A stretch of DNA of 64,000 bases, taken from the NCBI GenBank assembly GCA_045654585.1, contig JAZONS010000052.1, forward strand, positions 15,735-79,734, read 5' to 3'. The DNA comes from Eubacteriales bacterium (lineage in GTDB: Bacteria; Bacillota; Clostridia; Oscillospirales; CAG-272). The notes under the pieces are model-generated. The model had not been told where the DNA came from and ran no database searches. It was given only the letters and a program-made list of their open reading frames with translations. Positions 11,813 to 14,348 of the stretch are shown piece by piece (position 1 is the stretch's first letter; each line of letters opens with the position of its first letter). A program made the position numbers and the translations under genes.

Positions 11813-12943
11813 TTAATTTTCCTCAAACTTTATATTAATTCCGTTGACCTCGACGCCCTCGGTTGCGCGGATCATTATGTACTGCACGCCGCCGATTATC
11901 TGAGTTGAAACAAGCTCTCGGTGCTCGGGATTGACCTTTATCGTAACGTCGGGGGTGGTAAGCTCAAACTTTTTTGTGTCAACGATGTTCTTCGGGGTAA
12001 GCGATGCGCCTACGCCGAAGCTTTCGTCCATAGCTTCGCCAACCCGCTCAACCTTTTCTTCGGCGATTCCGCAGCCCTCGAGCACGCTTTTGACCGTGGC
12101 TTTCGTTATAACTAAGGGCTCGGGGTCCTTTGATTCCTTGTGCGACTCAACGATTTCGGCAAACTGCGTATGCACAGAGCGAACGACCTCAAAATCAAGC
12201 TCGTCGGAAAGAGCTTCCGCTAAGCATTCGTTGAAGGTTGCCTTCTGAATCTTTGGCGGCATAGGCGAGGACTTACCGAATACGTTATCGGTAAACTCGG
12301 GATAAGACTCTGATAGGCTTCTCGTGTAATAAAGCGCGCCGTATATATTTGTTTTCCTGTCATCAAAGAGAGGGAACATAAATCCAAGCTCAACCGCGCC
12401 GAGAAGTCCCGATGCGCTGACAGTGTGAAAGAGGCTGTCTGCCTCACGGAACGTGAGAGCCTCGGGGATATTTTTGATAGGGCAAACTGCGGAAACTATG
12501 TACGAAAATCTCTCTGACGAATCGGCTTCCTCACCGTCAATACCCTTCGTGAAAACGTCGTATATATCGTTCGCAAGCAAAATAACGTAATTGCTCTCGA
12601 ACTTCACACTTTCGATAACCTTCGCATAGTATGCCGAAAGAGCCTCTTCATCGCGAAGCTCGCTGTCGCGGAGCTTCATAAGCAGCAAGTGCTGCTCACT
12701 GTTCGTTACGTCCGCCGTGCTGAACGAGATCTCGTTCAGGTTGGTGCCGAGCGTGCCCGAAAGCGTCTTTTTCATAACGCCGAGCAGCTTCTCGGAAACG
12801 ACCGAGTCGGATGTGCCGAGCGGCTGCGATATTTTTGATAAAATTTCTCCGTTTTCGTTAACGAAGCAACCGACTATTCTCGGAATGTTGCTGTGCTCGG
12901 GGCGGAAACGCCTTTTTATTTCTCTGAGTTCTCTTTCTGTCAT
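11813..12943 (-). CDS. DUF4317-like conserved hypothetical protein
   Basis: The start MTERELREIKRRFRPEHSNIPRIVGCFVNENGEI follows a GGAG RBS. It resembles the Firmicutes DUF4317 family from memory, not from a search. Confidence 0.55.
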   Translation of the reverse strand: MTERELREIKRRFRPEHSNIPRIVGCFVNENGEILSKISQPLGTSDSVVSEKLLGVMKKTLSGTLGTNLNEISFSTADVTNSEQHLLLMKLRDSELRDEEALSAYYAKVIESVKFESNYVILLANDIYDVFTKGIDGEEADSSERFSYIVSAVCPIKNIPEALTFREADSLFHTVSASGLLGAVELGFMFPLFDDRKTNIYGALYYTRSLSESYPEFTDNVFGKSSPMPPKIQKATFNECLAEALSDELDFEVVRSVHTQFAEIVESHKESKDPEPLVITKATVKSVLEGCGIAEEKVERVGEAMDESFGVGASLTPKNIVDTKKFELTTPDVTIKVNPEHRELVSTQIIGGVQYIMIRATEGVEVNGINIKFEEN

Positions 12944-13042
12944 AACTGTTCTCCGTAAAAAAAGCAGCACGTGTTTGTGGCTGCTCGTGTGAATTTTTGC
13001 TGTTTTTTAGTGTACCTAGGGAAGGGCGTGGCGTGGTTTGTA

Positions 13043-13134
13043 CTTTGCCTACCCGTTTGGCCTGCCGTGGTGGATACCTTGCCTGCCCGTTTGGCCTGCC
13101 CGGTGCATATCTTGCCTGCCCGTTTGGCCTGCCC
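13043..13134 (-). repeat. Three direct repeats of the tRNA-Arg 3' acceptor end plus trailer (24-nt cores, period 33-35 nt)
   Basis: cttgcctgcccgtttggcctgccc occurs at 13111-13134 (overlapping the tRNA 3' end) and identically at 13078-13101. A degenerate copy lies at 13043-13066. Confidence 0.85.
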
Positions 13135-13201
13135 GCGCGGACTCGAACCGCGGACCTTCAGAGTCGGAGTCTGACGCACTATCCATCTGTGCAACGGGCA
13201 G
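13125..13201 (-). tRNA. tRNA-Arg (anticodon CCG) with encoded CCA
   Basis: Manual cloverleaf: acceptor CTGCCCG/CGGGCAG, D stem GCAC/GTGC, anticodon stem TCAGA/TCTGA with loop CTCCGAC, T arm CGCGG-TTCGAGT-CCGCG, discriminator G, then CCA. Confidence 0.9.
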
Positions 13202-13442
13202 GTATTAAGTTGTATTTGCAGAGTTTGCCGCTCGGGCTTATACTCTACGGTAGGCAATTTGTCTGTAAAAATGATAACTGCCATCTCCGAGCTGGCAATA
13301 TTCCAAAGCTACGCTTTTGGAATGCGGAGTCTTGTGCGTTTTCCCGTCCGATCGCATAGTCGTTCATTGTCGGGGCAGAGCCCCTTCTCGAACTCGTTGC
13401 TCTCGGGACTTCCGTCACGAAAAACAACATTTAGTTGTTTTT

Positions 13443-13470
13443 CGCTCGTCACCAGCTACGCTACGGGCAG
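13443..13470 (-). pseudogene. tRNA 5'-half-like fragment
   Basis: The minus strand reads CTGCCCGTAGCGTAGCTGGTGACGAGCG. It has the same acceptor 5' strand and the same 5 upstream nt (AATAC) as the real tRNA, plus a degenerate D-arm. No matching 3' half was found. Confidence 0.35.
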
Positions 13471-13481
13471 GTATTGTATAT

Positions 13482-13616
13482 GTAATGCAAAGCATTACGT
13501 GATATGTTTGCTGGTGCAAACGTGATATGTCACCATAGGTGACGCGATATTCTCGCTATGCGAGAGCGATATATGCCGCGAACTGCGCGGCGTGAAAAGA
13601 GATGCGTTTGGCATCT
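13482..13616. repeat. Array of six perfect 6-7 bp hairpins of unique sequence separated by a conserved GYGATAT linker
   Basis: Hairpins start at 13482, 13506, 13529, 13551, 13575 and 13600. Their stems are gtaatgc, gtttgc, gtcacc, tctcgc, gccgcg and agatgc. The linkers are GTGATAT, GTGATAT, GCGATAT, GCGATATAT and GTGAAAAG. Confidence 0.8.
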
Positions 13617-13878
13617 AAAAAGCTTTTTCGATTTTTTGTGAACTGCATGGCTGTTTTTTCAAAAAAGCGCTTATTAATTTTATCATTTTTCTTTTTGTTT
13701 GTCAAGAGAGTCAGTGGGATAAAAAGGAAAGAATTGAGAAATACAGAAAAACGAGTGAGAAATCCTGTAAAAAACAAAAAGTAACTATCCCGAAAAAGTG
13801 TTACGCCATATAGCTTTTTGCACAATTTTTGCTTAATTATTTTTAATAATTTTCCCGAAAAAAAGTTTTAAAAAACTA

Positions 13879-13907
13879 ATGACAAACAAAAAAATATATG
13901 TTATAAT
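13879..13907 (+). promoter_or_regulatory. Promoter with extended -10 for the lipoprotein genes
   Basis: ATGACA, 17-nt spacer, TGtTATAAT. Confidence 0.6.
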
Positions 13908-13964
13908 TGTCATAGTAAAGTAGGTCGTTGCTTTACAACCAAAATAAAAAAGGAGACACAAAAC

Positions 13965-14348
13965 ATGAAAAAAATCACGACACTATTATTAGTATGCGTA
14001 CTCCTTATAGGATGCGTATTCACCCTTGCTTCTTGTGTATTTTCCGCAGGCCCGATCACTATTATTTCAGGTGAATATGAGGTAGATCTTGCATTGGCAG
14101 AGTATGAAATCAGCTTTTCGCCTCTTGGTAAGATAACTGTTGTTGAAGATCCCATCATCGGTGATTCTAACACTTACGAAGGAAAATATAAGGTTAACAG
14201 CGAAACCAAAGAGATCACTCTTACTTGGAAAGGCGATGCTCCTACAGAGCTCGTTTTACCCAATGGAACAGAGTCATTCTCGTATGGTGAAAAAGACGGT
14301 GCTGAGTATATTCAGATCGGTTTGATCACATTCAAGGCAGCTGACTAA
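13965..14348 (+). CDS. Small lipoprotein, unknown function
   Basis: Signal peptide with lipobox: MKKITTLLLVCVLLIGCVFTLASC. Confidence 0.7.
   Translation: MKKITTLLLVCVLLIGCVFTLASCVFSAGPITIISGEYEVDLALAEYEISFSPLGKITVVEDPIIGDSNTYEGKYKVNSETKEITLTWKGDAPTELVLPNGTESFSYGEKDGAEYIQIGLITFKAAD

Follow-up and report, generated by a model that had tools for sequence, protein, structure and literature searches.

The region between positions 13482 and 13616 of the 64,000-nucleotide stretch of Eubacteriales DNA analyzed here (the window) carries a string of small hairpins joined by a short and almost constant linker, GTGATAT. This string is very probably one diverged copy of a mini-hairpin array of the Gut-1 class (Rfam RF01706). 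The best overall explanation, in which a Gut-1-class array acts through DNA hairpins formed by the strand that carries the complementary linker, ATATCAC, is assigned a probability of approximately 0.45. The presence of one such array in the window is itself unsurprising. The findings that deserve attention concern the size and distribution of the family, its bipartite form, its placement at gene ends, its occurrence in phages and a DNA-like, strand-specific loop code.

Re-examination of the sequence revealed six perfect stem-loops with stems of 6–7 bp, loops of 3–5 nt and a period of 22–25 nt, and the starts, stems, loops and spacers given for them in the original prediction were all correct. 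Read on the forward strand, hairpin 1 (13482–13498, GTAATGC-AAA-GCATTAC) has a perfect 7-bp stem and is followed by linker 1 (13499–13505), which has the family consensus heptamer GTGATAT. Hairpin 2 (13506–13521, GTTTGC-TGGT-GCAAAC), linker 2 (13522–13528, again GTGATAT), hairpin 3 (13529–13543, GTCACC-ATA-GGTGAC), linker 3 (13544–13550, GCGATAT), hairpin 4 (13551–13565, TCTCGC-TAT-GCGAGA) and linker 4 (13566–13574, GCGATATAT) lead to hairpin 5 (13575–13591, GCCGCG-AACTG-CGCGGC), which is the terminal hairpin of the array proper. A terminal degenerate linker (13592–13599, GTGAAAAG) follows, and hairpin 6 (13600–13616, AGATGC-GTTTG-GCATCT) lies beyond the array end, at the position where relatives carry a terminator or an extra hairpin (a canonical terminator in locus L269). 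All six stems differ in sequence, and an A+T-rich stretch adjoins the array on its right. A scan for intrinsic terminators at the window array marked hairpin 1 alone, and weakly; no hairpin of the array precedes a run of T.

This is the sole chain of at least three adjacent perfect hairpins within the window, and the longest chain found in 60 dinucleotide-preserving shuffles of the whole window was two. RNA folding of the array gave z-scores of −6.0 and −4.9 for the forward and reverse strands, respectively, with six hairpins predicted on both, and DNA folding gave −6.3 and −7.0. The window shows no enrichment of the heptamer outside the array, with 51 matches compared with 52 expected.

The array had been reported to match no known class of element. 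That view is not supported, as its architecture is the one described by Gut-1, namely hairpins of free sequence joined by GUGAWAU. A permissive-threshold Rfam scan of both strands of 12800–14100 returned only tRNA and sub-threshold Gut-1, with no notable riboswitch or ribozyme and no match to the large RNAs ROOL, GOLLD and raiA that the original prediction had named for checking. Gut-1 was the best non-tRNA match (13520–13603, forward strand, 22 bits, E = 0.17 over 1.3 kb), and the same match was obtained when the search was repeated on the 176 nt around the array (E = 0.023). Among 18 loci tested, 11 arrays with the linker of the window reached the Gut-1 gathering score, at 50–74 bits, and the linker family of the window heptamer is therefore assigned to Gut-1. 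The window array is tied to these members by homology of its hairpin 5 and tail (GCCGCGAACTGCGCGGC-GTGAA) to the terminal module GTCGCG-AACTG-CGCGAC of L220 and L286, the L220 array scoring 54.7 bits to Gut-1, above the gathering score. In addition, an array in L269 matches hairpins 3–4 with 81% identity across 52 nt.

The Gut-1 consensus comprises three hairpins, with AU at the start and GU at the end of each stem and GAA between the hairpins, which amounts to free-sequence hairpins joined by GUGAAAU (PMC2864571). Its seed includes members linked by GUGAUAU, several of them closely following a tRNA or a terminator (PMC2864571). The motif was known from human gut metagenomes, and its authors could state no more than that (PMC2864571); that 2010 paper was the only one found in a literature search on RF01706, the heptamer and REP-like elements in these taxa. 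The window array shares with Gut-1 the consecutive short hairpins, the freely covarying stems, the GUGAAAU or GUGAUAU joints, an origin in gut Clostridia and metagenomes, and the company of a tRNA or terminator, which often stands just upstream of Gut-1 members. It differs in having five array hairpins and one extra where Gut-1 has three, in having two linkers of the GCGATAT type, in loops that lack the U..C bias of the family, and in its position within a divergent intergenic region, antisense to the local promoter-like site described below. The Rfam model itself misses arrays of 3–19 units and tail-to-tail bipartite elements closed by a 10-bp long-range helix.

Arrays spaced by GYGATAT, which had been proposed as something to seek in related genomes, were found widely, and their stems covary. 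One genome per GTDB species was scanned with a pattern of three heptamers separated by unequal gaps, which excludes the plain tandem repeats through which giant-virus contigs would otherwise dominate. At least 108 true hairpin arrays in at least 95 loci were recognized among the 120 pattern loci listed. Among the matches listed, nearly all array carriers were metagenome-assembled genomes (MAGs) from animal or human gut labeled Oscillospiraceae, Acutalibacteraceae, Christensenellaceae, Eubacteriales or Clostridia, and at least two arrays occurred together in 12 loci of ≤8 kb. Arrays were also present on four viral contigs. On one of these (L116, 3740–4420, minus strand), two arrays flank a gene for a Prp cysteine protease in the segment from a portal-like gene to the next late gene; both lie within the late operon on the coding strand, with ribosome-binding sites directly after them. 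A BLAST search of the phage array region against cultured phages gave no match.

The canonical heptamer GTGATAT accounts for 426 of the 462 family linkers. The window array belongs to type B, a single array in which a degenerate last linker (GTGAAGG, GTGAAAAAAGG, GTTATGG or GTTTCGG) is followed by a hairpin or a terminator. The commonest form, type A, is a bipartite element of ∼170 nt in which a forward array stands tail-to-tail with a reverse array bearing linkers of the ATATCAC type, and the reverse array matches Gut-1 on the opposite strand. Type A elements contain a 10-bp long-range helix (TNTATTCGCC with GGCGAATANA) that is 98% paired and has one covarying position, and a 3-bp mini-hairpin, TGC-GNA-GCA, is kept in 38 of 40 bipartite elements. 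Pairing of forward with reverse linkers, as it appears in single-sequence folds of bipartite elements, was rejected because the reverse linkers are degenerate (ATAGAAC, ATACCAC) without compensating changes.

A 19-unit array in L247 (∼2540–2950) is built of a 68-nt super-unit of three hairpins, and in L269 (4060–4200 and 4743–4960) the same hairpins are re-used within and between arrays. These two loci provide evidence that arrays lengthen through tandem duplication of their units. In L266 (2556–2760), a second bipartite element stands beside one of the GTGATAT type; it has another linker (TGATGATATA/TATATCATCA) and its halves are in the opposite order, and both elements share a frame consisting of a 40-nt leader and a terminator. 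This pair suggests that linkers may fall into “specificity classes.”

The original prediction had attributed the pattern to selection on the fold, not to simple tandem duplication, and orthologous arrays from two lineages, L422 and L424, identified from the lipoprotein gene side, bear this out. Over the three copies, the sole stem difference is a compensatory change of T-A to C-G in hairpin 1, which reads GCAATGC-AA-GCATTGC in L422. Loops vary freely (AAA or AA in hairpin 1; TGGT, TGGC or CAAG in hairpin 2; TAT or, in L422, TGT in hairpin 4), with the stems of hairpins 2 and 4 kept and hairpins 3 and 5 unchanged in both orthologues. Among stem columns, 2 of 62 vary, compared with 6 of 18 for loops and 3 of 35 for linkers (Fisher p = 0.0013 for stems versus loops). 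Linker 3 is alike in the orthologues and linker 4 is the canonical GTGATAT, so the window form GCGATATAT is derived. The tail after GTGAA differs among the three copies, and hairpin 6 is absent from L422 and L424 and unique to the window.

Covariation was also assessed for the family in an alignment of 40 type A elements, with slid partners and 500 shuffles as controls. In these elements, 93.5% of cells pair, compared with 36–46% when partners are slid. Two-sided changes were observed at 25 pairs (174 cells), values reached in 0 of 500 shuffles, and one-sided (wobble) changes were rare. Taken with the orthologues, this shows that each unit is selected to fold. The heptamer is conserved and likewise under selection.

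The distribution of the array among close relatives of the window is narrow. Loci L412 (DUF4317 protein 89% identical) and L413/L414 (86%) are syntenic, with tRNA-Arg, two lipoprotein genes and promoter-like sequences, and contain no array, and none was present in the more distant relatives L425–L429. Homologues of the DUF4317 protein with 86–97% identity were found in metagenomes, the contigs of the 97% relatives ending just short of the array position; no array was found upstream in 80 further metagenome loci with homologues of ≤70% identity, and exact-protein look-ups with two window proteins gave no match. The presence of the array in L422 and L424 and its absence from the other relatives therefore point to a gain limited to some lineages, after which selection for pairing has maintained the array.

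Family members occupy a characteristic position relative to genes. Single arrays usually lie 2–100 nt past the stop codon of a long open reading frame, with the GTGATAT strand the same as that of the gene in 17 cases and opposite in 6 (p = 0.03). Bipartite elements sit between convergent genes (24 versus 6 for the left neighbor and 31 versus 13 for the right), and arrays in divergent intergenic regions are rare (4 of 113). The neighbors are ordinary genes, such as those for threonyl-tRNA synthetase, O-antigen ligase, HerA and a serpin. A terminator follows the array on the same strand in L269 (in the order stop codon, array, terminator), L217, L224 and L310, and many type A elements lie directly behind an intrinsic terminator, without room for a promoter; a canonical terminator was not found consistently either before or after the arrays. 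GC skew of the flanks was positive in 23 of 35 cases and adds nothing over gene orientation. In 9 of ∼95 loci, an array lies within 300 nt of a stable-RNA gene, encoding a tRNA (L215, L226, L254, L238, L265, L266 and L306), tmRNA (L300) or the RNA of the signal recognition particle (SRP; L248). This is more than one would expect of random intergenic positions, some of these loci being mutually orthologous.

The composition of the hairpins is strongly asymmetric between the two strands. Statistics were compiled for 215–237 distinct family hairpins, the 237 being nearly all different from one another. Stems are 5–7 bp long, and merely 10 of 1436 pairs are non-Watson-Crick (on the GTGATAT strand, six A·C or C·A and one G·T). 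The closing pair is 5′-C...G-3′ in 191 of 215 hairpins, and loops are mostly of 3 nt (n = 111) or 4 nt (n = 78). On the GTGATAT strand, loops of the form T..C make up 121 of 206 and loops of the form G..A none. The opposite, ATATCAC strand thus presents cGNAg triloops and cGNNAg tetraloops, the latter comprising 28 GNRA and 24 GNYA. The 33 ordinary terminators of the same loci showed neither the loop bias nor the closing-pair bias, and the bias tracks the orientation of the linker, not that of the gene, even in antisense arrays.

Hairpins of the GCGNAGC type are the classic stable DNA mini-hairpins, and a 3-bp mini-hairpin is too short to be stable as RNA. In DNA, d(GNA) triloops with a closing C:G pair have exceptional stability (PMC3201870). 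The scarcity of wobble pairs, loops that are the complement of cGNAg and cGNNAg, GNYA tetraloops about as frequent as GNRA, the C:G closing pair, the inverted halves of bipartite elements and the location of elements behind terminators together argue for DNA as the form in which the arrays act. The units would fold independently in single-stranded nucleic acid, displaying the heptamer between them and so presenting it to a sequence-specific partner, and their differing stems would keep them from mispairing with one another. The hairpins that matter would be those of the ATATCAC strand, formed in single-stranded DNA or extruded under supercoiling in the manner of the repetitive extragenic palindromes (REP) and bacterial interspersed mosaic elements (BIME). 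A mechanism of this kind, as opposed to a classical small RNA, is put forward tentatively, as somewhat short of an even chance.

A more far-reaching proposal would make Gut-1 arrays a new kind of DNA-level element, consisting of strings of cGNAg/cGNNAg mini-hairpins with free stems and a heptamer linker on one strand. Supercoiling would extrude them, or replication would let them form, where transcription units end and next to strongly expressed genes for stable RNAs. A host or phage factor would read them, and Clostridia would thus possess an equivalent of REP/BIME that works on different principles. In this full form, the proposal is rather unlikely.

Several observations weigh against the combined explanation, that of a Gut-1-class array acting as DNA. 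The window array scores 22 bits where the Gut-1 gathering score is 50, and the T..C/G..A loop signature is missing from it and from its orthologues. With respect to the upstream gene, the GTGATAT strand is mostly sense (17 versus 6, 24 versus 6 and 31 versus 13 in the comparisons given above), and the arrays of L269 and L116, to judge by their positions within predicted transcription units, must be transcribed as GUGAUAU RNA. Short stems may also bar wobble pairs in RNA. We know of no mechanism that would tie DNA hairpins of the template strand to the 3′ ends of genes. Finally, no partner protein was found, and neither the window nor the ∼0.8 Mb of array flanks contained a Y1 transposase or a REP-associated tyrosine transposase (RAYT).

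The surroundings of the window array include tRNA-Arg remnants. The original prediction placed a tRNA-Arg about 280 nt away in a gene-free region; the distance found was 281 nt, to tRNA-Arg(CCG) on the reverse strand (13125–13201; identified with ARAGORN, Rfam tRNA score 57.9 bits), and no convincing open reading frame is present in 12944–13964. The region is flanked by a DUF4317 gene on the reverse strand (11813–12943) and by two small lipoprotein-like open reading frames on the forward strand (from 13965). Further neighbors encode a SLOG-like protein, TMEM164, MscL and an AraC regulator, and the best matches of the neighboring proteins were in Ruminococcaceae and Clostridia MAGs. A sigma-70-type promoter-like site on the reverse strand (13677–13705; TTGACA-17-TAAAAT with an extended TG) agrees with 11 of 12 consensus positions, and its hexamers are conserved in L412, L413, L422 and L424, with or without the array. 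It aims through the array, which would read AUAUCAC in this direction, at a tRNA-Arg 5′ fragment and then at the tRNA gene, so that the window array has the less common orientation with respect to the predicted transcription unit. The site is probably the promoter of the tRNA-Arg unit, with a predicted leader of 170 to >450 nt depending on the lineage. The window copy would thus lie in the predicted leader between the promoter-like site and the tRNA-Arg remnants, where it probably has the general role of the family, not one specific to tRNA.

The stretch at 13452–13475 (reverse strand), a few bases from hairpin 1, repeats the 5′ end of a tRNA-Arg of ancestral type; it is a direct repeat (D5), 83% identical to the 5′ end of the real tRNA. 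On the same strand, 13340–13476 contains the 5′ part of a tRNA-Arg of ancestral type (CTGCCCGTAGCGTAGCTGG...), broken after the D-loop by ∼110 nt that include an 11-bp hairpin (13418–13444). Intact tRNA of the ancestral type is present in relatives, the working tRNA-Arg(CCG) of the window having a different body, and in L422 a longer 5′ half of a tRNA stands at a distance of 10 nt from the array. The tRNA region is duplicated and rearranged, L412 having a ∼280-nt tandem duplication. Directly downstream of tRNA-Arg, in the tRNA sense, 13035–13134 consists of three 33-nt tandem repeats, each of which contains twice the sequence of the 3′ acceptor strand of tRNA-Arg (CCTGCCCG, forward strand); similar repeats are present in L410–L413, and they look like repeated attachment-site scars. 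In L410 (1995–2465), from a 97% relative, an IS200-type Y1 transposase with its own flanking hairpins lies just downstream of the DUF4317 gene, and no GTGATAT arrays were found around this copy. An Rfam match to SAM-III (SMK box) at 13896–13967 on the forward strand, which overlaps the promoter and ribosome-binding site of the lipoprotein-like gene, scored 20 bits against a threshold of 45 and is most likely due to chance.

The arrays may alternatively function as RNA, an explanation that is possible and is regarded as doubtful. GUGAUAU-linked hairpins would then lie in 3′ untranslated or intercistronic regions of mRNA or form a separate small RNA, and would block exonucleases, mark sites of processing, or offer many binding sites, as a platform or sponge, to an RNase or an RNA-binding protein that recognizes the heptamer together with the U..C loops closed by C:G. 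The sense orientation of arrays 2–100 nt past stop codons, the same-strand terminators in L269, L217, L224 and L310 and the intercistronic placement in the phage late operon all fit such a role. The ends of the linker would moreover add an A-U and a U·G pair to each stem on the GUGAUAU strand alone, and the authors of the Gut-1 study rated the motif as certainly RNA (PMC2864571). Set against this are the loops of the GTGATAT strand, among which GNRA/GNA or UNCG types number 0 of 206 and whose signature is complementary to that of the stablest loops, together with the single G·U in 1436 pairs. RNA would be unable to form the conserved mini-hairpin of 3 bp, a promoter has no room before the many bipartite elements that stand just behind an intrinsic terminator, and any transcript of the bipartite form would carry one half of its hairpins inverted.

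The remaining explanations are less probable. The link to a tRNA advanced in the original prediction stands at this locus, where the conserved promoter-like site is followed by the array and then by a tRNA remnant, and does not define the family. An explanation specific to the locus would make the array, AUAUCAC-linked and transcribed from 13705–13677, a structured 5′ leader of the tRNA-Arg precursor that protects it or times its processing. The promoter-like hexamers kept in all relatives, the gap of 10 nt that separates the end of the L422 array from a tRNA half at its 5′ end, the stems conserved in three lineages and the 9 of ∼95 loci near tRNA, tmRNA or SRP RNA genes are consistent with this idea, which is nevertheless improbable given that L412, L413 and L426–L429 have the same promoter-like site and tRNA with no array, that the adjoining tRNA copy is a fragment, and that most family members are not beside tRNAs. 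It is more improbable still that the heptamers are iterons, spaced about two helical turns apart and bound in duplex DNA by a replication initiator, a partition protein or a ribbon-helix-helix repressor. The period of 22–25 bp, the A+T-rich region to the right and the far greater conservation of the heptamer than of the stems would suit iterons; the omega protein of pSM19035 binds the heptad WATCACW, which TATCAC(T), the reverse complement of the heptamer, fits. Binding to duplex DNA, however, leaves the palindromic spacers of free sequence, the compensatory changes and the strand-asymmetric loops unexplained. No rep, par or ribbon-helix-helix gene lies near the window array, arrays are scattered after housekeeping genes, and only 7 of ∼23 bp are conserved, with heptads split by palindromes where those of omega are contiguous. 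Least credible of all is a guide-RNA array of the CRISPR or tandem interspaced guide RNA (TIGR) kind, the TIGR stem-loop type being the nearest. Such arrays are likewise tandem, with a short conserved element and variable segments, and TIGR systems occur in phages and in Flavonifractor (Oscillospiraceae), one type having variable palindromes in place of edge repeats (PMC12045711). In the window array, however, units of 22–25 nt leave no room for two spacers of 8–12 nt, and the two variable arms of each unit can pair with one another. A second conserved repeat or a box C/D pair is missing, and neither a Nop-domain (Tas) gene nor a cas gene lies beside the array; many copies of the family follow ordinary genes. 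A CRISPR array was rejected outright, the conserved element being 7 nt where CRISPR repeats have 23–50 nt, the spacers being palindromic and no cas gene being nearby. Complementarity of GUGAU to the 3′ tail of 16S rRNA and a likeness of the heptamer to an extended −10 element were set aside as short matches without support.

With the Gut-1-class array acting as DNA hairpins retained as the preferred explanation, REP/BIME would be the nearest functional analogue. In Enterobacteria and Pseudomonas, REP/BIME are likewise extragenic clusters of small palindromes with many copies per genome, situated mostly at gene 3′ ends and in convergent gaps and rarely in divergent ones, and their hairpins can act as DNA and as RNA. 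REP copies nevertheless share one imperfect palindrome of ∼35 nt with a GTAG head, whereas the stems here differ and only the 7-nt linker is shared; the arrays also have no RAYT/Y1 transposase found near them, and their hosts belong to another phylum. Promoters of the phage N4 virion RNA polymerase are small hairpins with a 5–7-bp stem and a 3-nt loop. The mini-hairpins d(GCGAAGC)/d(cGNAg) resemble the family in hairpin geometry, in the C:G closing pair and in the GNA loop on one strand (PMC3201870). Both the N4 promoters and the stable mini-hairpins are single hairpins with a defined partner, unlike the family, in which hairpins form arrays, are joined by a linker and occupy chromosomal sites after genes. 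TIGR stem-loop arrays share the alternation of variable palindromes with short motifs and the occurrence in phages and gut Clostridia (PMC12045711), and differ in a period of ≥36 nt as against 22–25 nt and in their spacers, box C/D pair and Tas gene, all absent here. The sponge RNAs CsrB/RsmZ also display a short motif repeatedly by means of many hairpins with free stems; their GGA motif is in the loops and their partner is CsrA, whereas the arrays carry their motif as the linker.

Since 2010, Gut-1 has stood as an orphan motif represented by three hairpins from gut metagenomes, and it now proves to be the visible part of a far larger repeat system, present in many copies per genome among abundant gut Clostridia. 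Such arrays can be recognized in annotation and need no “unknown” flag. The strand-asymmetric loop signature makes the question of RNA or DNA directly testable. If the RNA explanation is true, the family would constitute a widespread 3′-end or protein-binding RNA module; if the DNA explanation is true, major gut bacteria would possess a previously unrecognized class of structured punctuation in their genomes.

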